A DNA stretch of 32,000 nt from Candidatus Electrothrix sp. GW3-4 (GCF_037902255.1 NZ_CP147990.1:90001-122000); one strand, 5' to 3'. Shown: positions 12,602 through 29,678, numbered from the stretch's first letter. Translations and numbers: made by a program. The notes: generated by a model from the letters alone, not told the origin.

Positions 12602-13342
12602 GATTGTTGTTTATTCGCGGAAACGCCAGCCCGTTATTCGATTCCCAGCGCCAGTTTTTTTGCCGTGGCTTTCAACTCGACCTCTTCTGTTTCCTGCTGG
12701 AGGAGGTCTTACCTTGCTTAATCTTTTTGGTCAGAGCTCTGGGGTTGTTCCGCGACCTTGCTACGTGTCATTTTTTTCTGTTGTTAAGAGCAGGGCTTCC
12801 GTACCATGAAGTCTCTCTCACTTGATTCAGAAAAAATGATCTTTGTTTTCCTGTTAACTGTATGCACTTTATAAATAATAGTCTGTTATCGGCAAGGCGT
12901 CAAATAACAATCCAAAGATGTGTGGGTAGAAAGAGGACAGGTAGTGCGGGGAGGTGATTTTTGGGAGTGAATTGGAAGAGGGGTAAAGATAAATAATTTT
13001 ATTCTGTTGAGTAGAAGAGGGGGACTGGACTGTGTAAATAATTGTACCACGGCGTAGGGGAGCGGGTAAGGTGTATACAGTATTGATGTTGTTATATGTC
13101 TTGAAGATGGTGTTCAGGTGCTGGGAGAGAGAGGGGGAGACATAAGGCAAATGTTGATGAAATATGTTGTCGTTCCTATTTATACCTTGCATTGCGCTCC
13201 AGTAAGGCGTTGACGATGACCTGTTGATCGTGCTTGCAAGAGGGGCTAGGCTGTTTTTCCGGCATATTTTATGCAACTGTTTAAACTGGAAGACATTCTT
13301 GTGTGAAAAATGTGTAAAATTGTACCCTAGAAGAGGTTGGTT

Positions 13343-13543
13343 ATGTTGCTGGAAAAGATGAGCCACGGAAAAAAAACGGGAAAAGGCATGCTGGCAGATT
13401 ACTCAAGTGAGTATATTCTGCTTTTGTTCATGTGTTTATTTTCCGCGACTTTTTTAGTTGCAACCTTCCTCTTTTTGACAACAGGGGATGAGATGATTTT
13501 TTTGCAAGATATGCAGCTCCCTTTTCTCTCTTCCAGTTTTTAG
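13343..13543 (+). CDS. Possible small membrane protein (66 aa)
   Basis: AAGAGG lies 7 nt upstream of the ATG at 13343. There is one clear TM helix (YILLLFMCLFSATFLVATFLFL). It is an AT-rich island ORF with no recognisable family. Confidence 0.25.
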   Translation: MLLEKMSHGKKTGKGMLADYSSEYILLLFMCLFSATFLVATFLFLTTGDEMIFLQDMQLPFLSSSF

Positions 13544-13811
13544 TGTTGGAAAGTGGAGTATGGGTTCGAACAGACTGGTTTCGATTTGTTTTCTTGCCTG
13601 AACTCTTACGAGAAGAGTTGGTTTGAAAAGTTTTGCGATTATGCTATTTGAAATGGTGGACTCTTCTGGCTGCCCAGGCGGGTCGGGCATTTTGCCCGAA
13701 AAAATGAGGCGAGCGCCTTATTGTCAGGGGAAACGTTTGTATGGTTAGATAGGAAGAGTTGAGGTGCGTGGCTTTCTGGAAAACGAGCAACTAACGACAA
13801 GGAGTGGCAAG

Positions 13812-14039
13812 ATGAGTGCAAAAACACAAGCTATGATCAAAAAAGAGTACGATTGCCCCCTGACCCATCAGCATGTTCAATTGAAAATCAAGCAGAGTGC
13901 TTACGAGATGCGTGCGGAGCCAGAATGCTGCTCATGTGTTGGGCAATGCGGTTGTGATGTTGTGCAGATTATTTATGGCATGAGTTATACGGTAGATTGG
14001 AAAAAATGTTCTTTGTACTCCTCCTTCACAGAGCATTGA
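13812..14039 (+). CDS. Small cysteine-rich protein (75 aa, 7 Cys, including ECCSCVGQCGC)
   Basis: AAGGAG (13799-13804) lies 7 nt before the ATG at 13812. The product is MSAKTQAMIKKEYDCPLTHQHVQLKIKQSAYEMRAEPECCSCVGQCGCDVVQIIYGMSYTVDWKKCSLYSSFTEH. I recognise no family. Confidence 0.5.
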   Translation: MSAKTQAMIKKEYDCPLTHQHVQLKIKQSAYEMRAEPECCSCVGQCGCDVVQIIYGMSYTVDWKKCSLYSSFTEH

Positions 14040-14069
14040 TTTCCATTTGCCTTTATTGTAGTACTATTT

Positions 14070-16000
14070 CTCCCCATTCGCTCATTTGAAATAGAGTATT
14101 TTTAATTTTCAAGACCATAATAAACAAATGTATCCAACTCTAGCCTTTGTATTATTTCTATTTGTAAATTCGACAATGGTTTTAGTGAGCGAACAACAAC
14201 ATTCCTTGCTTGATCAAAAATAATGGTGAGATTAATTCTTGAAAAAGCCTTCAGAATCCTCTCTGCGGACGGTTTATCAGTAATTTTTTTTCGGTTCTCA
14301 GGATGCATACCAGACAGCCCGGTTTTTTCTTCCTTCAATGAACGCCGAACAACAAACTCTATCAACGTCATAACCCTGACACACAAGGTCAACAAGTAGG
14401 TCATACCTTGAATTTGATCGTCTTTTCGAACAAATAACGGAGCGATATTGAGTCGACTTTTTAGTCTTCCGAAAATGCATTCAACCCGATATTCATTTCG
14501 GTATGACAGTACAGCATCGTGCAATGACAGTTTATCCGCAGCGAGCTCAGTCACAAATGCTTTCCAGCCAAACCGAGTGCTTTGCTCTGCAATGGCCTCT
14601 TGGTTCTTTTCAATAGAGGTGATTTGATAACGGACTGTTTCGACAGTGACTTTTTCTCTATTGGCTGCCCCCCTGCCTCTGCCAACATATTTTGTTTTCT
14701 GCTCGATCTGTTTTTCGTATTGAATGTTCAGTAACCCATCAACCCTTTGAGCTTCTGTTATTTTAGTGACAGCCGCAAGCAGTTCTGCTTCATCGCTTAT
14801 CTGACGCCTGCCTCGCCCTCGCGGAGGAGTCAATGCTTCAATTTTTTCTTGGGCTTTTACCAGTCGAGCCTCAAGTCCCGCAGTTTGTTGCCTGGCATGG
14901 GCAGGGGAATGGACAACCAAAACACGTTCATCCCATTCCATTTTTTCGACGTCTTTTTCAAAAACCTGAGTACGATTAAACTCATAGCCTTTAGCTGCAA
15001 AAATCAATTCGCCCTTATAATTTTCTCTGAAAACAGAGACCAAATCATCTTCTTGATCTTTGGCAATACCTGTATTAATCCAATCAGTTATTTCATGAGA
15101 AGTTTTACCGGTCAACGGCAAGGGGCACAAATAGTGCTGCCTGGAAGAGACCAAGTAAGCCCAAGTCTCCAATGCACTCATTTTGCAATCACCTGAGAAC
15201 AATAATCCGGATTTTTCAAGGCTCTCATTGACCCGGGCTATCAAGGGAATATAGAGACCGTCGTCTGCCTTTTCACCGGAAACAACATCAGAAGCCAATG
15301 GCATTCCCAGAGGATCCAGAGCAGCACTCATCAATTTTATTTGTGGTAACTTGGCATTGTCTTTGCTGTGACCGAATTGTACCAATCCATCTTCCGTGAT
15401 TTCTTGATCTGCAGAAACTGTAGTTGCATCACATCGGATTGTTTCCGGCTCCAGATTATATACCTCTATCGTCTGTTGATTGAGATCCGCTTCTATCTTT
15501 GACCAGCATGTGTTATTGCTTAAATGTCTGAGAAGATGGGCCAAACGGTCATCACTGAAATCTAGTGGCACTACCGGCTGATCCGCCAAAAAGCTCAATG
15601 TGTGTTGCATTTCCTGGACATACTCACTCATCGAGACTTTGCGATGATCCCCTTCAGTTATGATATGGGCCATCCATATGACGGTGGTCCATCCCCAGCT
15701 GAGTTGTCTCTGATTTCCATGTTGAGGAATATGCCTGTCGATGATTTCCCGAAGGCCCATCCTGATCATTTGTGCTATAAGCAGAGGGATATCATCCACT
15801 CGCTCTGTGATGATTTGAAGTTTGTCTTTGTCGAAAACGCCTTGCTCTTCTGATGTCAAATTCGCTATCATTTCAGTGTCATTTATGATTATAGAAAAAG
15901 GAGTTTCAACTCAATCTCATACCAAAATAGGGTCTGTTTGAAATTTTACAAGCCCGATTCAGAATTAATTTTTCCAAATTTAAAATGAGCGAATGGGGAG
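14070..16000 (-). mobile_element. Intact insertion sequence, IS4/IS1634-type (most consistent with the IS1634 family), 1931 bp
   Basis: The terminal inverted repeats are ctccccattcgctcatttGaaat (14070-14092) and the reverse complement of atttAaaatgagcgaatggggag (15978-16000), a 22/23 match. It is flanked by a perfect 6-bp direct repeat CTATTT (14064-14069 and 16001-16006). It carries a single 589-aa DDE transposase ORF. Confidence 0.85.
14102..15871 (-). CDS. DDE transposase (IS1634/IS4-like)
   Basis: The 589-aa ORF fills the element. The N-terminal region DDIPLLIAQMIRMGLREIIDRHIPQHGNQRQLSWGW...DFSDDRLAHLL and the later RCDATTVS, FGHSKD and LFSGDCKMSA blocks are typical of this transposase group. 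Confidence 0.8.
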   Translation of the reverse strand: MIANLTSEEQGVFDKDKLQIITERVDDIPLLIAQMIRMGLREIIDRHIPQHGNQRQLSWGWTTVIWMAHIITEGDHRKVSMSEYVQEMQHTLSFLADQPVVPLDFSDDRLAHLLRHLSNNTCWSKIEADLNQQTIEVYNLEPETIRCDATTVSADQEITEDGLVQFGHSKDNAKLPQIKLMSAALDPLGMPLASDVVSGEKADDGLYIPLIARVNESLEKSGLLFSGDCKMSALETWAYLVSSRQHYLCPLPLTGKTSHEITDWINTGIAKDQEDDLVSVFRENYKGELIFAAKGYEFNRTQVFEKDVEKMEWDERVLVVHSPAHARQQTAGLEARLVKAQEKIEALTPPRGRGRRQISDEAELLAAVTKITEAQRVDGLLNIQYEKQIEQKTKYVGRGRGAANREKVTVETVRYQITSIEKNQEAIAEQSTRFGWKAFVTELAADKLSLHDAVLSYRNEYRVECIFGRLKSRLNIAPLFVRKDDQIQGMTYLLTLCVRVMTLIEFVVRRSLKEEKTGLSGMHPENRKKITDKPSAERILKAFSRINLTIIFDQARNVVVRSLKPLSNLQIEIIQRLELDTFVYYGLEN

Positions 16001-16031
16001 CTATTTTTCTCCTTTTTCTTTTTTTCCTCCG

Positions 16032-16080
16032 CAACGATCCTGATAGTAGCTTGGTTATTTTGTCAGGATCGTTGTTTTCT
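16032..16080 (+). terminator. Terminator-like hairpin (12-bp perfect stem, 19-nt loop, TTTTCT tail)
   Basis: caacgatcctga (16032-16043) pairs with tcaggatcgttg (16063-16074), followed by ttttct. It lies just beyond the IS insertion point, so it was probably the terminator of the 13812-14039 gene before insertion. Confidence 0.4.
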
Positions 16081-16411
16081 GAATAGCTCAGTCGATGCTC
16101 CCTGTCTTGGGCATTGCTGATTTTCTTCTGGTACGATCTTTCCTGTTGATACGTTTGGAATACTCCTTTGCAGGATGTTTTTCAGGCTTCTGCAATATTG
16201 CTTGCCGAGTTTGCTGATGCCTTCATGAAAAAGCAGGGTGGAAAAGGGTCAGGAGGGCGGGCCTGGTTACGTACGTCGGGAGGGTACAGGCTATCCTGTG
16301 GTGCCGTTTACATTACAAATGGAATTTAAAAGGGATAAGCCTCTCTGACCCCATTTTTTTGTGTTTGAGAAATACCCTCTTTGTAGAGGCAGTCCCCTTA
16401 CATATGATCTT

Positions 16412-16597
16412 TCACCCCCTAAGTCGTTTTTGTATCGTTATCTCTGAAACTTTTATAACTGCCTTCACTGCTACCCTGTTAAAGGATGAATTCAAAAGGA
16501 ATATAGACACAGTGAGCAGGAGTGCCACAAGGAGAAGCTCTCTTCGTTCACGACTATTTATCTTCAATTCCCAAAAATTCTTTTCTGATCTGTCCAT
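16412..16597 (-). CDS. Possible small membrane protein (61 aa)
   Basis: It starts 25 nt after the stop of the 16622-16894 gene on the same strand. It has one TM helix (LLLVALLLTVSIFLL). There is no SD, so it is weak. Confidence 0.25.
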   Translation of the reverse strand: MDRSEKNFWELKINSRERRELLLVALLLTVSIFLLNSSFNRVAVKAVIKVSEITIQKRLRG

Positions 16598-16621
16598 ATA
16601 GAAGTCTGAAAGGGTAGGTGT

Positions 16622-16894
16622 CTATTTTGCTGTATTAATTGATAAAGTTTGTTGATTTTGTCGGCATACGATTTTGTCTTGTGCTTGATGCTCAGAAAAA
16701 CAATTTGTGTGATATTGATATATTGTTTTTTTTGTTGCAATGGACAAGTTGCAAAGCCATTTCATCTTTTCGTAAAGATTTTTTAACCTAACGTCTTTCA
16801 GTGGACAATTCACATTGTCTATATAGAGCGGGCATTCATATGCTAAACTGATAAGAATTGCATTGTATTGCTCTTCTGTTTTTACTTGTTCCAT
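16622..16894 (-). CDS. Small Cys-containing hypothetical protein (90 aa)
   Basis: The product is MEQVKTEEQYNAILISLAYECPLYIDNVNCPLKDVRLKNLYEKMKWLCNLSIATKKTIYQYHTNCFSEHQ... The CPL motif occurs twice, and HTNCFSEH could be a metal ligand set. It lies downstream of the two-CW gene on the same strand. The SD is weak (AAGAG). Confidence 0.45.
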   Translation of the reverse strand: MEQVKTEEQYNAILISLAYECPLYIDNVNCPLKDVRLKNLYEKMKWLCNLSIATKKTIYQYHTNCFSEHQAQDKIVCRQNQQTLSINTAK

Positions 16895-17076
16895 CTTTGC
16901 TCTTTTTTTCTAGAATAAGGATGATGGTTTCGTAAAAAGTCCAATTTTGCGAAAAATCGTGTTGTAACTCGTTGAGTTGCCGTTAGCGAATTACTGTTTT
17001 CTGACTTTTTACCAGGCCATCAAGGATAAAAAAAACGGGGCGCGGCCAATATGTGCCCAACGGCGGGCTAAACTAA

Positions 17077-17427
17077 TCAAGTATAGCTGTGCTGAGGAGA
17101 ATCAGTTGGCTCAATCCTTTTCATCTTTTTGCGAGCCAGAATAACAGAAGTTACGCTAAATAATGGGATTTCCTCCTCTCTAACCAACTGGTAGAAATTA
17201 CAATATAGGCACCCCTCACGCTTTTCTTTATAGTCTCCCTGTCGTTGACCGTCACAAAGCGTACCAGCTACGACCCAACATGAACGCCCAGCGTTTTCGC
17301 CTTCATGAACACCGTCGAGATCACGGTCAACAGCAGCTGGACAAACTCCTTCAGAGGCATTCTTTCCACCAGCCTCACGACCACATTTTTTGAATTCCCA
17401 ACAATTTATTTTTATTTCGTTCATCAT
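17077..17427 (-). CDS. Standalone two-CW-domain protein (Cys-rich, putative metal/redox-cofactor binding)
   Basis: GAGGA lies 4-7 nt before the ATGATG. NCWEFKKCGREAGGKNASEGVCPAA...GENAGRSCWVVAGTLCDGQRQG...CLYCNFY matches my memory of the two-CW domain (two CW motifs plus conserved Cys). That domain is usually N-terminal to sensor proteins in anaerobes. Confidence 0.65.
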   Translation of the reverse strand: MMNEIKINCWEFKKCGREAGGKNASEGVCPAAVDRDLDGVHEGENAGRSCWVVAGTLCDGQRQGDYKEKREGCLYCNFYQLVREEEIPLFSVTSVILARKKMKRIEPTDSPQHSYT

Positions 17428-17687
17428 GCTTCCTCAATTTACCTATCTGCTTGTTGTAAAATATGAATTAACGTTTCCTCATATTATGAAGTATAATACT
17501 TTTTTCGGCGAAAAATTCAATATTTATGTTTTATAACAAATGGATAAAGTCTTTTTTTCGTTGCGTGAGAAGGAAAAATATAAATTTGTGTTTTTTTGAC
17601 TAGTGCTCTGTAAAATCTAAATTTTAGGGTAGCGTATTTAAAATTAATGTAGCATGTTGTCCGAAAAAAAAATTGAAAGAGGATTTC

Positions 17688-18131
17688 ATGCCAAAAAAAT
17701 ACATTGTCCAATTGACTCCAAAAGAACGCTGTCATTTACAGGAGGTTATCAAAAAGCTTTCGGGGGGCAGCCAGAAAGTCCGTCGTGCTCACATCTTATT
17801 GAAAGCTGATGCAAATGGCCCCTGTTGGAAAGACAGCAGGATAGCAGAAGCATTCAACTGTAGGACAAAAACGGTTGAGAACATCCGTCAAAATTTTGTT
17901 TTGCACGGTTTTCAACAGGCTCTTGACGGAAAAAAACGTGCAACCCCGCCTACTCCGAAACTATTGAATGGGGAGCAGGAGGTTAAAATCATTGCCACTC
18001 GTCTTGGTTCACCTCCGCCGGGATACGCAAATTGGTCACTGCGCCTTTTAGCCCGACATGTTGTTGAATTGGAAATAGTTCCGTCGATCAGCCATGAAAC
18101 TATTCGCCAAGTAATAAAAAAAACGGGATGA
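17688..18131 (+). CDS. IS630 transposase OrfA (HTH DNA-binding part)
   Basis: AGAGGA precedes the ATG at 17688. MPKKYIVQLTPKERCHLQEVIKK...VRRAHILLKADANG...NWSLRLLARHV is a typical IS630 N-terminal HTH/winged-helix region. It ends ...RQVIKKTG*. Confidence 0.8.
   Translation: MPKKYIVQLTPKERCHLQEVIKKLSGGSQKVRRAHILLKADANGPCWKDSRIAEAFNCRTKTVENIRQNFVLHGFQQALDGKKRATPPTPKLLNGEQEVKIIATRLGSPPPGYANWSLRLLARHVVELEIVPSISHETIRQVIKKTG
18116..18123 (+). promoter_or_regulatory. A8 slippery run: probable programmed -1 ribosomal frameshift (or transcriptional slippage) site joining OrfA and OrfB
   Basis: A AAA AAA lies in the OrfA frame, 6 nt before the OrfA stop. A -1 shift yields ...RQVIKKKNGMNNRKIQYWVIPPK, which restores the conserved KKxx...W.IPP junction of single-ORF IS630 transposases. 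Confidence 0.6.
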
Positions 18132-18823
18132 ACAACCGGAAAATCCAATACTGGGTTATTCCACCAAAACACGATGCGGAATTCGTGGCCAACATGGAAG
18201 ATGTGATAGAGGTTTATGAAAGACCGTATAATCCTAATCATCCTTTTCTTTGTATGGACGAACAACCAGTTCAGCTGATAAAGGAAACTCGTTTACCTAT
18301 CCCGGCAACTAAAAATCATGCTAAACGCGTTGATTATGAGTATGAGCGTAACGGAACAGCCAGTATTTTCATGTTCACCGAGCCTCTTTCAGGCTGGCGT
18401 GAAGCCACAGCTCGTCCTCGGCGGACTAAAACAGATTGGGCGATCGAAGTGGCTCGCCTCCTTGAAGGTCGCTATGCAGAATGTGAAAAGATAACGTTGG
18501 TTTGCGATAATCTCAACACCCATACAAAGGGAGCTTTTTATGAGGCTTTTCCTCCTGAACGTGCTCGTGCATTAGTACGCCGGATTGAATTTTGTTACAC
18601 ACCGAAACATGGTAGCTGGCTCAATATAGCAGAAAACGAATTGAGCTCCATGACTCGACAATGTCTTGCCAATCGTCGTATAGGAGATATCGAGACGTTA
18701 CAGAAAGAGATTGCCGCATGGTCAAGCGATGTGAATAACACTCAACGTGGTGTTGAGTGGCAAATGAAAATTTCTGATGCCCGGTGCAAATTAAAATCCG
18801 TTTACCCTAAAATTAAGTCGTGA
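18128..18823 (+). CDS. IS630 transposase OrfB (DDE catalytic part)
   Basis: Conserved blocks are YWVIPPKHDAEFVANMEDVIEVY, LCMDEQPVQL, VCDNLNTHT and TPKHGSWLNIAENE, which carry the DDE residues. The stop lies inside the right IR. Confidence 0.8.
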   Translation: MNNRKIQYWVIPPKHDAEFVANMEDVIEVYERPYNPNHPFLCMDEQPVQLIKETRLPIPATKNHAKRVDYEYERNGTASIFMFTEPLSGWREATARPRRTKTDWAIEVARLLEGRYAECEKITLVCDNLNTHTKGAFYEAFPPERARALVRRIEFCYTPKHGSWLNIAENELSSMTRQCLANRRIGDIETLQKEIAAWSSDVNNTQRGVEWQMKISDARCKLKSVYPKIKS

Positions 18824-19450
18824 CAGAGCACTAGCGCGGTAATTCAGAAAAAATGATGGAGGAATTATTCACACATGTTGACGGCGTTCATGACGGCCAA
18901 TAAGGGGGAATGGTGAAAAAAGTTGGTTGGGGGGAGCGTAAGGAAGGAGAACCATTTTGTGCAACTGCTGTGAATCCGGCCATCTTAATCAGTCTAAAAT
19001 GGTCATTTTTTACGGCCTCTCACGTCGTAAACAGAAACAAGAAAAGTAAGCGCATTGCTAACACACCCCAAAATCAAACCGGGCAGTGATGCGGATTACA
19101 GCGTGGGGTTGCGGGTTCGAATCTCCTGGGTAACAATCTTTCCAGGCATTATTGCCGGATCTCGTACCCTGATTTTGCAGAAAGAGGTCCGAAGATCGGT
19201 TTCGCTGATCCAGCACTTCAATAAAATGATCCAAAGATTGGACAAAAAAGCCCAGATCCTGGATAAAAAAGGCCACACATTGGACTTCCTTATCAAAAGA
19301 TTTGATTGGGAAAAGGAGATTTATCCTGTGCCTTCAAGATAATACGTCGGATTGACTGCGCTGAGAGCATTGCTCGGAATTATTGAAGAGCAATCCCCCT
19401 TTTCTCCAAATTGGTAATGCTTGAAAAAGAAAGAGACAAGGCAGAAAAGA

Positions 19451-19524
19451 TGGCTGGGGGACAGGGATTCGAACCCCGATAAGCGGAGTCAGAGTCCGCT
19501 GTCTTGCCATTAGACCATCCCCCA
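19451..19524 (-). tRNA. tRNA-Gln (anticodon CUG)
   Basis: I folded the reverse complement UGGGGGAUGGUCUAAUGGCAAGACAGCGGACUCUGACUCCGCUUAUCGGGGUUCGAAUCCCUGUCCCCCAGCCA by hand. It gives a 7-bp acceptor (U1-A72), a D arm GUCU/AGAC, an anticodon arm GCGGA-CUCUGAC-UCCGC, a T arm CGGGG-UUCGAAU-CCCUG, G73 and an encoded CCA. It resembles E. coli tRNA-Gln2. Confidence 0.9.
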
Positions 19525-23810: not shown

Positions 23811-24683
23811 TTAGTTCTTTTGCAGAGCAGCGATCCGTTCTTCCAGGGGCGGATGGCTGCTGAACAGGGCCTTCACGGTGCTGCCAGCAATGCCGCTGGC
23901 CGCCATCTCTTTGGGAAGCTCGCCAGGATGCATGCCGCCAAGGGCCTGCAGGGCCTCAATCATGGGGCGGCGATCATCCATCAGGGCGGCAGCGCCTGCA
24001 TCAGCCTTGAACTCCCGGATGCGGGAGAAGTACATGACAATGATGCTTGCCAGGATGCCAAAGAGGATCTCAAACACGATGCTGGTGATGAAGTAGCCGA
24101 TACTAAAGCCGCCTGCGTCCTCATCGTCGCCGCGCAGGAAATTGTCCACGGCATAGGCGGCAACCCGGGAAAGGAAGATGACAAAGGTGTTAATAATGCC
24201 CTGGATCAGGGTCAGGGTAACCATATCCCCGTTGGCTACATGGGAGATTTCGTGGGCCAGCACGGCCTCCACTTGGCGTTTTGTCATACTTTGCATGAGC
24301 CCGGTAGAAACGGCAACCAGGGAATTGGAGCGGCTGGGGCCAGTAGCAAAGGCGTTGGGTGCGCCCTGGTAGATGGCAACCTCCGGTATGCCCAAGCCCG
24401 CCCTGGAAGCAAGTTTGGCCACCGTGTCCAACAGCCAGCGTTCTTCCTGGTTGCTCGGCTGCTTGATAACCTGGGCTCCGGTGCTCCACTTGGCCATTTT
24501 TTTCGACATCAGCAGGGAGATGAAGGAGCCGCCAAAGCCGATCAGGGCGGAAAAGGCGAGCAGAAAGGTCATATTCAGCCCATTGCTGGTCAGGAAACGA
24601 TCTATGCCCAGGATGCGCGCGCTGATGGACAACACCACCAGGATTGCAAAGTTGGTCAGCAAAAACAAAAAAATTCGTTTCAT
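23811..24683 (-). CDS. htpX: Membrane zinc metalloprotease HtpX (M48 family)
   Basis: [19 protein letters not shown] is the N-terminus. The [11 protein letters not shown] HExxH motif is present, and the TM topology and length (290 aa) are typical of HtpX. Confidence 0.9.
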
Positions 24684-25053
24684 CGCAATGCTCCTTTTTT
24701 TCAGTATATTCTTTTGATTCGGATAAAGAAGGGGCTCAGGTTGCCTGGGAGGTCGGATCAGCAGGGGGCTTTGAGCCGTTTTTTTAAAGAGTAGGGATTG
24801 GATGGGAAAATGTAAAGGGTGTGAGGGTATTTTTGCTGCACGTTACGGTGAGTTGCAAAAAAACTTGTGGGTTTTCAGTTGCTTTTTTGTTGGAAGTAGT
24901 GGTAAGTTCTTGTTGTTGTGTGTGGAAAACTTGTAATACCGGGGTAAGAGGAATGTTGTGGAATCTATTGCTAGCAACAGAATGGAAAGATTCCGCTTAT
25001 TGATACGTTGGTACACTTAACCTGTACTGTATCGTTAAAAATTCGTCCCGGAA

Positions 25054-25220
25054 GAGGAAAATACCTCGCTGTAACGGGAGAAACTCTTGCCGAAGCGGCG
25101 AAAATCATCCTGAAGCAGGAGAAACTCATTTTGTACCAGGAAAAAACAGTATTGTAGCAGGAAAAAATCGTTCTGAAGCGGGAGAAAGTCGTCCTGTAGG
25201 AGGAGAAAATGGCTCTGCAG
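25054..25220 (+). repeat. Tandem array of eight 21-bp repeats (one unit is 20 bp), consensus about CRGGARAAA-N6-CTGNAG
   Basis: The units are 25054-74, 25075-95, 25096-115, 25116-36, 25137-57, 25158-78, 25179-99 and 25200-20. They are contiguous with no spacers. GGA is retained in 7 of 8 units. Confidence 0.9.
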
Positions 25221-25300
25221 CACTACATGGCCATTTCCGCCCCCTCCGCCCGCTTATCCTCTGGGAGATTCTTCCCTTCAACCCAACGTAGGAGAACGCC

Positions 25301-25945
25301 ATGCCCGCCTCATACCATTCCATCGAAGATCGTCTGAACCGCTACCAAACTGGACTCACCAATGCCCGCAATGTTCCTGAGTTGCAAAGCCGGGTTGCCC
25401 TGTTCGGCTATACCCCGGATAAGCTCAATCAGATTCTGAGCCAGCGGCAGCAGGCGTTCGAGCTCTACCTTGCCCAGAAAAGCGAATACAGCGAGCAGTA
25501 TACTGCCACCGAAACCTTTGACAAGGCCTGGAAAACCGCCCATGGGGCCTACATGCGCTTGGTTCGCTTGGGGCGAATCCTGTTCCGGGACGATCATGCC
25601 ATCTTTATTAAGCTGACCCTTAACGAGGAGCGCAAACGGACCTTTTCCGGCTGGTTGGCCCAGGCTAACACCTTTTTCAGCAACCTCCTGGCTGATCCGG
25701 TTGTTTTGGAACAATATGGTCAGTATAATACGTCAGAAGATGTGATCAAGGCGGCAAAGGCTCTGGTAGATGCAGCTGAAGTGGCAAATATCATTCAGGC
25801 AAAAGAAACAGGAGAGGCCCGGCAGGCCACCCAAGATCGGGGTGCGAAGATGGAAGCCCTGGATAAGGCTATGTCGGAGTTCTATGCCTTGGCCGAACTG
25901 GCCTGCGAAGATGCACCGGATCTGCTGGATATGCTTGATCGGTGA
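25301..25945 (+). CDS. Hypothetical all-helical protein (214 aa)
   Basis: AGGAG lies 6 nt before the ATG at 25301. The ORF is clean with normal composition, with no TM or signal sequence. I recognise no family. Confidence 0.6.
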   Translation: MPASYHSIEDRLNRYQTGLTNARNVPELQSRVALFGYTPDKLNQILSQRQQAFELYLAQKSEYSEQYTATETFDKAWKTAHGAYMRLVRLGRILFRDDHAIFIKLTLNEERKRTFSGWLAQANTFFSNLLADPVVLEQYGQYNTSEDVIKAAKALVDAAEVANIIQAKETGEARQATQDRGAKMEALDKAMSEFYALAELACEDAPDLLDMLDR

Positions 25946-26056: not shown

Positions 26057-26563
26057 CTATTCTTCTGAAGGAAGGGGTGAGGGCTCTGCAGCCGCTTTTT
26101 TTTCATCCTCAAAGATCTGCAACAACAAAAAGATCCCCACCCCGACAGAAATCCCTGAATCCGCCACATTGAAGGCAGGCCAGTGGTAGCCCTTGATATA
26201 GACATCCAGGAAATCCACCACAGAGCCGTACAGGACCCGATCAATCACATTACCCACAGCTCCGCCCCCGATACAGGCGAAGGAGAGGGTGTACCAAGAG
26301 TTCTCTTTCCCCATCTTGCGTTGCATAACCACCAGGGCCACCAGGGCCACCGCCGCAATGCTGATGAAAAAGATCTGTCGCCAGAGCGGTGGCATCCCGG
26401 AGAGCATGCCAAAGGCCGCCCCGGTATTGCGGAGAAAGGTGAGATTGAAAAAGCCAGGAATGATCACCTGGGACTCATAGAGTGCGAAGTTGTCCAGGAT
26501 CCAGAGCTTGCTCAGCTGGTCGCCCACCACGACCAGCACCAGGATAAGAAAGAAACGGATCAT
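26057..26563 (-). CDS. lspA: Lipoprotein signal peptidase (signal peptidase II)
   Basis: MIRFFLILVLVVVGDQLSKLWI...NTGAAFGML...VGNVIDRVLYGSVVDFLD...WPAFNVADS are the conserved LspA blocks. The start lies 2 nt after the ileS stop, giving the classic ileS-lspA operon. Confidence 0.9.
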   Translation of the reverse strand: MIRFFLILVLVVVGDQLSKLWILDNFALYESQVIIPGFFNLTFLRNTGAAFGMLSGMPPLWRQIFFISIAAVALVALVVMQRKMGKENSWYTLSFACIGGGAVGNVIDRVLYGSVVDFLDVYIKGYHWPAFNVADSGISVGVGIFLLLQIFEDEKKAAAEPSPLPSEE

Positions 26564-26565
26564 AA

Positions 26566-29373
26566 TCAGCCTGCCAGCTCCTTGACCACAGCAAGGCAAC
26601 GGCTGCACAGGGCCGGATGCTCGCTGTCTTCACCTACTGTGGGGGATATGGTCCAGCAGCGTTCACATTTATTGCCCGGCGCAGGCCGGACCGCGATCTG
26701 TAGATCCTTCATTTCCTCGCCAGCAACAAAGCTGGCATCGCCTGCCTCGGTAACAACCTGCAAACTGGATATGATACAGAGTTCCTGTAGCAGGGCCAGG
26801 TTGTCATTGAGAAAGGCGGTGGTCTCGGCATCTGCCTGGAGGAGCACCTCCGCATCCAGGGAGAGGCCAATGGTCTTATCCCGACGCGCTGCCTCCAGCA
26901 CCCTGGTGATCTCGCTGCGTAGGTCAAGCAGCTTGCTCCAACGGGCATCCAGCTCCGCATCCTGGGCAATATCGTCTACCTTGGGGAAGTCAGCAAAAAA
27001 GACTGATTCCTCAATAGGGGATTTTTGATCAAGCCCGTGTAGATGTTCCCAGGCCTCGGCAGCGGTCACGCTGAGGATCGGGGCCATCAGGCGGAGCAGG
27101 CCGTCCAGAATCCGGTAAATGACCGTCTGGGCTGCCCGGCGCTCCGGTGCATTCGGGGCGGAGCAGTAGAGCCGATCCTTGAGCACGTCCATATAGAGGC
27201 TGGAGATGGTGGTACCGCAGAAGTTGATCAGGCTGTGGTAGATGGCATGGAACTCATATTCGTTGTAGGCTCGCTCCACCCGCCGGACCAGATCGGCAAA
27301 ACGGGCCTGGGCCCAACGATCCATCTCACTGAAGGCTTCCGAGCCGACGCTATCTGTGGCTGGATCAAAATCATTGAGATTAGAGAGGAGAAAGCGGATA
27401 GTGTTCCTGATTTTGCGATAGGAATCAGAGACTCGGCGAAGGATCTCCTCGGAGACCTTGACGTCGTCCCGATAATCTTCGCTGGCTACCCAGAGGCGGA
27501 GGATTTCTGCCCCGAATTTATCGATCCCCTCCTGGGGAGCAATCACGTTGCCGATGGATTTGGACATCTTCTTGCCCTTGCCGTCCACCACATAGCCGTG
27601 GGTGAGCACGCCCTTGAACGGTGCGCAGTCACGGGTGCCCACTGAGGTCAGCAGAGAGGACTGAAACCAGCCCCGATGCTGGTCACTGCCTTCCAGGTAG
27701 AGATCCGCCGGAGAGCGCAACTCGTCTCGCGCCTCCATAACCGCAGCATGGCTGACCCCGGAGTCAAACCAGACATCCAGGATATCTGTTTCTTTCTCAA
27801 AATGGGTTGAGCCGCAGGAGCATTGTACCTCGTCCGGGAGAAAGTCCGCTGCCTCATGCTTGAACCAGGCATCAGCTCCTTCTTGTTCAAACATGGCCTC
27901 AATATTTTCACAGACCGCAGCATCCTTGAGGATCTCGCCGCAGTCTGCGCAGGTCAGCACGGTCAGCGGGACACCCCAGGAACGCTGGCGCGAGACACAC
28001 CAGTCCGGTCGACCTTCCACCATGCCGTAGATGCGTTGCTGGCCCCAGGCCGGGGTCCACTTGACCTCGTTGATGGCCTGGAGGGCCTTGTTGCGCAGGT
28101 CATTATTCTTCATGGAGATGAACCACTGCTTGGTGGCTCGGTAGATCACCGGTTTTTTGCAACGCCAGCAATGGGGATAGGAGTGATTGATCTCGCTCTC
28201 CTTGACCAGGGAGCCGTCTGCTGCCATATCATCGTTGATCTCCCGATTGACAGCCGGGATTTGGCGACCTGCGTATTTGCCTGCCTCTTCCGTGTATTGG
28301 CCTGCATCATCCAGAGGTGAGAGCACATCCAGATCGTAGCGCAGACCGGTGATGTAGTCGTCTGCACCATGTCCGGGTGCGGTATGGACACAACCGGTAC
28401 CGGCCTCAGTGGTGACATAGTCGGCCAGGACCATCAGGGAGTTCCGATCCAGGAAGGGGTGACGGCATTTTTTGCCCTCCAGACCCTTGGCCGAAAAGGT
28501 GGTCAGCACCTTGTACTCACTGATGCCGAAGTCCTCAAAGCATTTTTCCACCAGCTCCTGGGCCAGAATCCAGACCTCGTCCTTGACCGCCACAGCGGCA
28601 TAGACAAAATCAGGATGAAAGGCCACCCCCATATTGGCGGGCAGGGTCCAGGGGGTGGTAGTCCAGATCAGCACCCGGAGGTTTTCCATGCCTGCCAGTT
28701 CAGGCACGGCCTCTTTCAGATCCTCTGCCACAGGAAATTTGACATAGATGGACGGTGAGGTGTGATCATAATATTCGACCTCAGCTTCGGCCAGGGCCGT
28801 GCGGCAGGTGGAGCACCAGTAGACCGGCTTTTTGGAGCGCACCACGCCATCGGAGAGGAGAAAACGGTTGAACTCCCGGGCAATGGCGGCCTCGTAGGCG
28901 AAATTGATGGTCAGATAGGGATTATCCCAATCGCCCAAGACCCCTAAACGGCGAAACTGTTCTTTCTGGGTCTTGATCCATTTTTCAGCATAGTTGCGGC
29001 AGGCACCGCGCTTTGCCAACACCGGGATGGTTTCTTTTTTCTTGCCCAGCTCCTTGTCCACATTATGCTCAATGGGCAGACCGTGGCAGTCCCAGCCCGG
29101 AATATACGGGGCCTGGAAACCGGCCAGTCGGCGGGACTTGAGGATAATATCCTTGAGTACCTTATTAAAGGCCGTACCGAGATGAATATTGCCGTTGGCA
29201 TAGGGAGGGCCGTCGTGGAGAATGAACAGGGGCCTGTCCGCTGCTTTTTCCTGAAGCTTCTGATAGAGTTTTTCCTTGTCCCAGTGTTTCAGGTATTGCG
29301 GCTCTTTCTGGGTCAGATTGGCCTTCATCTTGAATTTGGTTTTGGGCAGATTCAGGGTATCCCGGTATTCCAT
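26566..29373 (-). CDS. ileS: Isoleucine--tRNA ligase (type 1, with C-terminal zinc finger)
   Basis: The start MEYRDTLNLPKTKFKMKANL is at 29373. The HIGH motif is PPYANGNIHLGTAFNK and the KMSKS motif is KKMSKS. The C-terminus is CERCW...CSRC. Confidence 0.95.
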   Translation of the reverse strand: MEYRDTLNLPKTKFKMKANLTQKEPQYLKHWDKEKLYQKLQEKAADRPLFILHDGPPYANGNIHLGTAFNKVLKDIILKSRRLAGFQAPYIPGWDCHGLPIEHNVDKELGKKKETIPVLAKRGACRNYAEKWIKTQKEQFRRLGVLGDWDNPYLTINFAYEAAIAREFNRFLLSDGVVRSKKPVYWCSTCRTALAEAEVEYYDHTSPSIYVKFPVAEDLKEAVPELAGMENLRVLIWTTTPWTLPANMGVAFHPDFVYAAVAVKDEVWILAQELVEKCFEDFGISEYKVLTTFSAKGLEGKKCRHPFLDRNSLMVLADYVTTEAGTGCVHTAPGHGADDYITGLRYDLDVLSPLDDAGQYTEEAGKYAGRQIPAVNREINDDMAADGSLVKESEINHSYPHCWRCKKPVIYRATKQWFISMKNNDLRNKALQAINEVKWTPAWGQQRIYGMVEGRPDWCVSRQRSWGVPLTVLTCADCGEILKDAAVCENIEAMFEQEGADAWFKHEAADFLPDEVQCSCGSTHFEKETDILDVWFDSGVSHAAVMEARDELRSPADLYLEGSDQHRGWFQSSLLTSVGTRDCAPFKGVLTHGYVVDGKGKKMSKSIGNVIAPQEGIDKFGAEILRLWVASEDYRDDVKVSEEILRRVSDSYRKIRNTIRFLLSNLNDFDPATDSVGSEAFSEMDRWAQARFADLVRRVERAYNEYEFHAIYHSLINFCGTTISSLYMDVLKDRLYCSAPNAPERRAAQTVIYRILDGLLRLMAPILSVTAAEAWEHLHGLDQKSPIEESVFFADFPKVDDIAQDAELDARWSKLLDLRSEITRVLEAARRDKTIGLSLDAEVLLQADAETTAFLNDNLALLQELCIISSLQVVTEAGDASFVAGEEMKDLQIAVRPAPGNKCERCWTISPTVGEDSEHPALCSRCLAVVKELAG

Positions 29374-29678
29374 TGTTTTTTCTCGTGGAGTAAATATGTT
29401 TGTTGAGGATTCAGGCATTGTACAGCATCGTGCAGCGTTGTACATTTGCGATGCTGGACATGTGAGGAGGGCGTGCTCCGTACTTCTACCTGGACAAGCT
29501 CTTTTTCTTATTGTAATAACAGATTAATGTCTAAAGATATTCAGCATGCCCTTGTCTGGCCCAGGCTGCATCTGCGAAAACAAAGATAAAAAATGCAGAA
29601 TTTTACTCCGATCGGGAGAAGATGCAAGGGAAATTGCCTGATTTCGAGTATTACATCCCATGTAAGGAGAAAGAAGAA

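Follow-up and report, generated by a model that had tools for sequence, protein, structure and literature searches.

Here we describe a two-part module in the genome of Candidatus Electrothrix sp. GW3-4, a cable bacterium: an array of 21-nt tandem repeats followed on the same strand by a single gene of the PQLLE protein family. It lies in a stretch of 32,000 nt, hereafter called the window, in which eight units occupy positions 25054–25220 of the plus strand and the gene for a 214-residue protein occupies 25301–25945 (+). The association of array and gene recurs across the PQLLE family, and the array is non-coding and polar with respect to the strand of the gene. We tentatively propose that it acts as a repeat RNA to which the PQLLE protein binds.

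Repeat arrays upstream of PQLLE genes

A sequence-only reading of the window had described eight 21-nt-phased units on the strand of the gene and upstream of it. This description stands, as Tandem Repeats Finder (TRF), self-match analysis and Markov controls agree. The units, as first transcribed, concatenate exactly to 25054–25220 in head-to-tail order; seven of them measure 21 nt and one measures 20 nt (25096–25115). Their consensus is CAGGAGAAAATCGTTCTG followed by NAG, with an A-rich core on the strand of the gene. TRF reported 6.4 copies of period 21 at 25077–25210 (score 91, 71% matches), and an independent repeat search likewise gave spacings of 21 nt. The lag-21 self-match over 126 nt reached 0.643 at 25064, which is the top value for lags 5–69 in the entire window, versus a maximum of 0.46 among 200 first-order Markov simulations of 32 kb each. 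Searching with the unit consensus at up to 3 mismatches returned four matches, all of them inside the array (0.02 expected). The repeat search also revealed a degenerate ninth unit, the first in order, at 25033–25053 (+) (cgttaaaaattcgtcccggaa, 12/21 identity to the consensus), and it is here that conservation among relatives begins. Three independent assemblies of strain GW3-4 carry an identical array. The array is confirmed as non-random, phased and real.

We compared 14 genomic and 65 metagenomic loci, with PQLLE homologues down to ~23–30% amino-acid identity. A lag-autocorrelation test that is independent of TRF was applied to the 64 loci with at least 300 nt upstream of the gene. In 58 of these the best upstream lag was 21, 41/42 or 62/63, versus 1 of 59 when the same test was run as a control on the 700 nt downstream and none of 69 within the gene body. 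TRF found arrays upstream of the homologues with a period of 21 (or 41/42/63/84) in 3–18 copies, ending mostly ~50–300 nt and at most ~520 nt before the start codon. Spacing was strictly 21 nt in most arrays, while a few alternated between 21 and 20 nt; the 20-nt unit of the window array is conserved in one homologous locus (L007). A two-unit super-period (lag 42 or 41) gave the best value in 33 of the 58 arrays and lag 63 (or 62) in a further 9. Organisation of the units in pairs or triplets was frequent, and one array (L043) alternates ATCAT and ATGAT cores. Thus, the association between array and gene is shown across the PQLLE family. Over related loci, where the sequence-only reading had suggested looking for conservation, the presence of the array and its period are kept, the GGA cores and the copy number vary, and several arrays lack an open frame on the minus strand.

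L070 (contig Ga0114975_10109096) alone showed the reverse arrangement, a period-42 array behind the PQLLE gene and no array in the 559 nt ahead of it; the array may belong to a further paralogue that would follow past the end of the contig.

An all-against-all comparison of flanking open reading frames (ORFs) revealed no other gene that is conserved next to the PQLLE gene, and the genomic surroundings of the loci were unrelated from genome to genome. From the association in 58 of 64 loci, the lack of any other conserved neighbour and the varied contexts, we therefore conclude that the array and the PQLLE gene constitute a self-contained two-part module, which measures ~1 kb. That this module is inherited and moves as a unit is the best reading of these data. 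One metagenome-assembled genome contained two paralogous modules whose unit sequences differ (L007 and L011). The array tolerates displacement away from the gene: at two loci, insertions of 200–400 nt separate the two parts. There (L012, 2484–3000; L016, 2644–3000) the gap between array and gene spans 357–517 nt and contains palindromic insertions (ccccctctcaagagggg...) that resemble miniature inverted-repeat transposable elements.

The gene at 25301 had been called an orphan, which it is not. Its product shows 100% identity with a hypothetical protein of Candidatus Electrothrix sp. GW3-4 and belongs to NCBIfam NF052641, the 'PQLLE family', with 200 bits (curated cut-off 80 bits) and an E-value of 3.7e-59, residues 5–212 aligning to profile positions 2–209 of 211. 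The family carries no functional annotation. Searching a representative library with the profile yielded 2,940 clusters at 50% identity from many phyla; 57 close homologues came from Electrothrix, Electronema, Ca. Kentrum and Chloroflexota, and hosts of homologues include Desulfobulbaceae, Chloroflexota, Bacteroidota, Ignavibacteriales, cyanobacteria and Ca. Kentrum. In the AlphaFold2 model (pLDDT 93.8) the protein is all-alpha, with a pattern of helices of 26 + 56 residues that occurs twice. BLASTP of the two halves against each other detected no similarity. Profile comparison of the N-terminal half (1–107) with the C-terminal half (108–214) by HHalign gave a probability of 99.6% and an E-value of 9e-24, which identifies the protein as two tandem copies of a ~107-residue helical module. 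Both halves contain the motif E-x-G-E-(Q/A)-x-x-A-T (like E-Y-G-E-Q-x-x-A-T), and two glutamates of each pseudo-symmetric pair are near-invariant.

Searches with the PQLLE protein gave no match in Pfam, in PADLOC or among PDB sequences, and none that was significant in PHROG. Foldseek comparison of the model with the PDB found generic coiled coils at best (E 0.035), and nothing among solved and viral structures resembled it beyond such coiled coils. The literature that we searched contained no paper on the PQLLE family, on the array or on a link between them, and the supplements of the Kentron paper have no entry for the PQLLE homologue. Public gene calls of three homologues (P0027, P0150 and P0182) are 100–130 amino acids too long, the ORF having been extended upstream through the array; such calls produce spurious heptad-repeat N-termini, for example APSEVVG three times over.

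Strand polarity, palindrome and leader

The arrays have strand polarity. Read on the strand of the gene, 19 of 41 arrays had an AAAT[CG] core in half or more of their units; read on the opposite strand, 0 of 41 did. The core often appears as GAAAAATC[AG]T, and the remainder of the unit varies between lineages. Likewise, runs of AAAA were found in 22 arrays on the gene's strand versus 1 on the other. The sense strand is A-rich, G-poor and weakly structured, some arrays being nearly free of G. In the unit stems of cable bacteria, G-U pairs on the sense strand outnumbered A-C pairs (47 versus 17). Many units contain short palindromes with centres of 0–1 nt, such as CTGCAG, TTGCAA, GGATATCC and CTTGGTNACCAAG.

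At its 3' end the array runs into a palindrome (25198–25245, +), which the inverted-repeat search resolved into the last unit (25198–25220) and an inverted 'anti-repeat' (25223–25245) around a small inner hairpin. The arms of 23 nt are 74% complementary and appear in the minimum-free-energy and centroid folds. The idea that a C-rich tract behind the array could pair with the GGAG core was thus borne out, its partner being the last unit according to the inverted repeat, the fold and an alignment of ten sequences. The statement that no terminator lies between array and gene fared less uniformly: the palindrome is there, and in GW3-4 it is not followed by a canonical U-tail. It is kept in 10 relatives with some double changes, and in relatives it is terminator-like. 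Across the family, a hairpin with a U-run was located at the 3' junction of the array in 12 of 41 loci, versus 3 of 41 upstream, none inside the array and 1.8 expected from shuffles, so palindromes are enriched at the array 3' end. Inverted copies of the unit (at least 12/14) were detected in a minority of loci: 9 of 42 had one downstream of the array and 4 had one upstream; they come from several clades.

In cable bacteria no other non-coding part is as well conserved as the interval between the last units and the ATG, and conservation of the gene-proximal units and of the leader extends across genera. We aligned this interval from ten cable-bacteria relatives. RNAalifold predicted, besides the long hairpin of the palindrome, a small leader hairpin, CCCG-N9-UGGG, at 25249–25265 (+; helix 5, 95% of alignment cells paired) and, as helix 6 (25272–25295, +; 94% paired), pairing of a CU-rich anti-Shine-Dalgarno segment at 25272–25276 with the Shine-Dalgarno (SD) sequence GGAGA at 25291–25295, which overlaps AGGAG at 25290–25294. 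A U-G pair in the SD helix is invariant in 10 of 10 sequences; on the opposite strand its counterpart would be a mismatch of C and A. Overall, 93.7% of cells were paired, versus 46–58% when the partners were slid, and five pairs showed double changes, a number that 3 of 500 shuffles attained. The comparison thereby shows a leader structure that is conserved in one clade, in which the SD sequence is predicted to be masked.

A candidate sigma-70-like promoter, TTGATA-N17-TGTACT, can be read at 25000–25028 (+) and would place the transcription start at ~25035, at the first, degenerate unit. This candidate, put forward by the sequence-only reading, was not reported by a consensus promoter scan and is not conserved in relatives. 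In L016 a sigma-70-like match (TTGGCA-17-TACAAT) ends just before the first unit, and like matches exist in some other loci. The conserved spacer of cable bacteria is C-rich and has no promoter-like hexamers. Among the short assemblies no transcript-like contigs were found, contig ends being random or breaking in the repeat. Rfam, a check that had also been suggested, returned no hit for the window that passed the gathering threshold and no relevant hit with E≤10 for the intergenic region (24684–25320), and 20 homologous loci were likewise without a match.

A repeat RNA as possible ligand of the PQLLE protein

Our preferred reading, in which we place somewhat less than even confidence, is that the array acts as a sense-strand repeat RNA and as a multi-site ligand of the PQLLE protein. 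It would be transcribed on the strand of the gene from a promoter just upstream, with the gene or just ahead of it. The A-rich, weakly structured RNA would display the same short motif once per 21 nt, often as 42-nt pairs, and the hairpin of the last unit and its inverted copy would close it. Read-through would produce the PQLLE mRNA, in which, in cable bacteria, the CU-rich segment would mask the SD sequence. The pseudo-dimeric helical PQLLE protein would then bind the repeats. As an outcome, either the array would sequester PQLLE in a type III-like manner, or PQLLE would act on its own mRNA by controlling the hairpin and the helix that masks the SD. We infer the transcription, the binding and the outcome. 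The G-U and U-G asymmetries, the polarity, the junction hairpin and the predicted leader structure favour an RNA of the sense strand. The two-unit super-period parallels the two-fold repeat of the protein, and the one may be linked to the other.

Several observations weigh against an RNA. The arrays fold with ordinary energies (z ~ -1, both strands alike), and a unit-internal stem, sought family-wide, did not rise above shuffled controls. In the window no U-tail was found after the palindrome, and in the cable-bacteria clade the palindrome has its more stable fold on the minus strand. The PQLLE family is acidic (median pI 5.2), and no similarity of PQLLE to nucleic-acid-binding or RNase folds was found. 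Other observations that count against an RNA speak at the same time for an array that works at the level of DNA, with helically phased operator- or iteron-like sites for PQLLE or a host factor and autoregulation of an adjacent promoter. The period of 21 bp (20.5 in the 41-nt arrays) equals two helical turns and is strict across phyla, and this exact phasing together with the short palindromes inside many units fits sites in duplex DNA equally well. The fold energies are overall without strand bias, and sigma-70-like matches are no denser upstream of the arrays than in the spacers between array and gene. Four loci of a Bacteroidota-like clade whose arrays have different units (L063, L064, L068 and L072) share a conserved spacer block, (T)TTGTAAC[AT]AAAATTAAAAAA[TC]AGAGTATA, ~60 nt before the ATG, which may represent a promoter of the Bacteroidota type (TTTG ... 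TAnnTTTG-like) or else an RNA element; a promoter between array and gene in this clade would suit such autoregulation. The terminal inverted unit copy in several clades and the A-C mismatches on the sense strand of the cable-bacteria palindrome point in the same direction.

However, the strand polarity is strong and consistent, the unit stems and the SD helix have G-U pairs that are specific for the sense strand, and a sense-strand hairpin with U-run is enriched at the junction. The C-rich cable-bacteria spacer without promoter-like hexamers and the tolerated insertions of 200–400 nt likewise argue against an array of DNA sites. PQLLE, an acidic all-alpha protein, lacks any known DNA-binding domain, and the array has neither a DnaA-box cluster nor a plasmid context. 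An array acting as DNA is the main rival of the RNA reading, and we regard it as rather unlikely on balance. The suggestion of phased protein-binding sites in the sequence-only reading thus survives in a modified form, as sites in RNA or in DNA, while an iteron origin does not.

An RNA leader could also act in cis without a protein partner of its own, as a translational enhancer or standby site (for ribosomal protein S1 or through the ARN motifs of Hfq) or as a stabiliser of the mRNA, for a protein required in large amounts. The A-rich, G-poor and weakly structured sense strand would suit this function, the units of the window array carry an SD-like GGAG, and competing GGAG units could open the helix between anti-SD and SD. 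But such a leader fails to explain why a 21-nt array is confined to, and near-universal in, one family across phyla with different mechanisms of initiation, and it leaves unexplained the divergent, paralogue-specific unit sequences as well as arrays that more than 350 nt and a hairpin set apart from the gene. We consider it improbable.

The sequence-only reading had placed first a leader or sponge that titrates CsrA, a protein often encoded in deltaproteobacterial lineages. GGA in a CAGGA-like context indeed occurs in seven of the eight window units. Across the family, however, only 8 of 41 arrays have GGA in at least 80% of their units, while 11 of 41 have it in 20% or fewer; in the cable-bacteria clade its predicted place is the 5' arm of the unit stem and not a loop. 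Since Rfam also gave no Csr/Rsm family match and the arrays track the PQLLE gene across phyla rather than a lineage, we give this idea very little credence.

The third suggestion of that reading, a small protein of (LQxDFFL)n heptads read from the minus strand (ORF 25223–25035), is just as improbable. Its frame is open in the window and in close relatives, some differences between units look synonymous (CTN, CAR, TTY), and several distant array consensus units read xDFFxLQ on that strand. But the ORF starts at a GTG without SD and loses its frame at the 20-nt unit, and in several other arrays every one of the six frames contains stops, or a 41-nt period shifts the frame with each unit. Variability within arrays, measured as entropy by phase, has no 3-base periodicity, and substitutions between orthologous arrays of the cable-bacteria clade fall 21/17/16 on the three codon phases. 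Once translated, the arrays yield heptads that are unrelated from one locus to another. These results show that the array is non-coding.

Finally, a functionless, slippage-prone minisatellite (variable number tandem repeat) would accommodate the copy numbers of 3–18 units among relatives and the common block duplications of two or three units, yet a strain-specific repeat, which according to the sequence-only reading would undercut any function, is very hard to reconcile with arrays in 58 of 64 homologous loci across phyla, all lying on one side of the gene and sharing one polarity, with identity in three independent assemblies of the strain, and with gene-proximal units and a leader conserved between genera.

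Comparison with known systems and genomic context

The closest known kind of system is the type III toxin-antitoxin locus, from which the PQLLE module departs in the fold of the protein, the length of the unit and the structure of the RNA. Type III loci are recognized by an array of short repeats, then a palindrome that serves as terminator, then the gene, and the paradigm antitoxin ToxI consists of 5.5 copies of 36 nt (PMC3401426). The PQLLE module shares the layout of ToxIN, CptIN, TenpIN and AbiQ/antiQ, with array, palindrome and single gene on one strand; such an array is present at 25033–25220 in the window and in 58 of 64 homologous loci. Like type III systems, the PQLLE module stands alone in unrelated contexts, and its paralogues within one genome have different repeats. 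The A-rich motif in each unit is a further likeness. Type III toxins cut their own arrays in A-rich sites. In contrast, the PQLLE units measure 21 nt (often in 42-nt pairs) in 5–18 copies, and no pseudoknot-like structure is detectable in the arrays. The protein, an acidic all-alpha duplication, has no likeness in sequence or fold to ToxN-type endoribonucleases and no PADLOC model, and it is not an endoribonuclease of the ToxN/AbiQ/CptN/TenpN type. Relatives of the module were found neither in plasmids, including PLSDB, nor in phages. Because the protein is unrelated and the units are shorter and unstructured, the PQLLE module is not a member of the known type III families.

Iterons and Rep genes form autoregulatory modules in theta-replicating plasmids, for example pPS10, F, P1 and R6K. 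As in these modules, the PQLLE arrays are direct repeats phased at about two helical turns (~17–22 bp in iterons) immediately upstream of one gene, and several clades have an inverted copy of the repeat at the terminus next to the gene. However, PQLLE is not a winged-helix Rep protein and has no Pfam match, the window locus is chromosomal, between housekeeping genes and without plasmid relatives, and the arrays are strand-polar with an RNA-like leader. Within 150 nt of the array we found one DnaA-box-like 9-mer with one mismatch (24921–24929) and no cluster. We considered a replication origin or iterons of an integrated plasmid and rejected them, since DnaA boxes do not cluster here and neither a Rep protein nor a plasmid relative was found.

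Attenuation leaders with reiterated motifs include those of TRAP-trp, HutP-hut and PyrR-pyr. They resemble the PQLLE arrays in that a short motif is repeated in a 5' leader before and overlapping a hairpin. By analogy, with the last unit forming the 5' arm of the hairpin, a repeat-bound protein could decide whether the hairpin forms, and an SD-masking helix is predicted downstream here as well. The known leaders use 3-nt motifs spaced 2–3 nt apart or single binding hairpins, and their ring-shaped or dimeric proteins have known folds. PQLLE arrays, in contrast, have a period of 21 nt and a length of 100–400 nt, and the regulated gene would encode the putative binder. The CsrB/RsmZ sponges are alike in the window only, where many GGA units would lie in one RNA; in PQLLE arrays at large GGA is neither conserved nor in loops, Rfam gives no match, and the arrays are tied to one protein family.

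The link between array and PQLLE is apparently undescribed, none being recorded in Rfam, Pfam, PADLOC, PHROG or the literature searched. It is possible, and we advance it with considerable doubt, that array and PQLLE constitute a new, phylum-spanning class, in which a pseudo-dimeric helical-rod protein would assemble on a 21/42-nt-periodic RNA with one half-protein per unit. Such a class could amount to a fourth, structurally unrelated type III-like system, for toxin-antitoxin function or for defence, or else to a new periodic ribonucleoprotein (for example a filament or scaffold), and would comprise a new fold for RNA recognition. If PQLLE does bind such a repeat RNA, the PQLLE family, whose thousands of members lack a known function, would gain a nucleic-acid partner, and a recurrent non-coding element absent from Rfam would gain a context. 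The principle of a repeat RNA with its protein would extend from one toxin fold to an unrelated all-helical protein and would reach Desulfobulbaceae including cable bacteria, Chloroflexota, Bacteroidota, Ignavibacteriota and cyanobacteria. To our knowledge, type III-like systems are hardly known in those phyla. Should the array instead act as DNA, the PQLLE proteins would form a new family that binds DNA arrays, and their fold would be new as well.

In the window, the neighbours of the module are housekeeping genes: dxs, a DUF2959 gene, htpX (23811–24683, –), and lspA and ileS (26057–29445, –). Farther off lie minC, minD, fpg, fabI and an insertion-sequence transposase. The longest lspA ORF (26057–26608, –) has its GTG start at 26608 and overlaps the end of ileS (26566–29445) by 43 nt; the public assembly calls lspA with a later start (168 amino acids), and the true start is probably downstream of the ileS stop. 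A stretch of low GC content at 13000–19000 (0.39–0.45 versus ~0.52 elsewhere) contains an ORF for a DDE transposase (14102–15871, –; PF01609) and is probably an insertion sequence or a small island. DnaA-box-like 9-mers (TTATCCACA, at most one mismatch) number 20 in the window versus 6.0 ± 2.6 expected; they are scattered and do not cluster near the array. A second, short period-21 repeat of 2.3 copies (ATTGGACAAAAAAGCCCACAC) is located at 19237–19285 and 19451–19524, ~170 nt from tRNA-Gln(CTG), and its sequence is unrelated to that of the main array.

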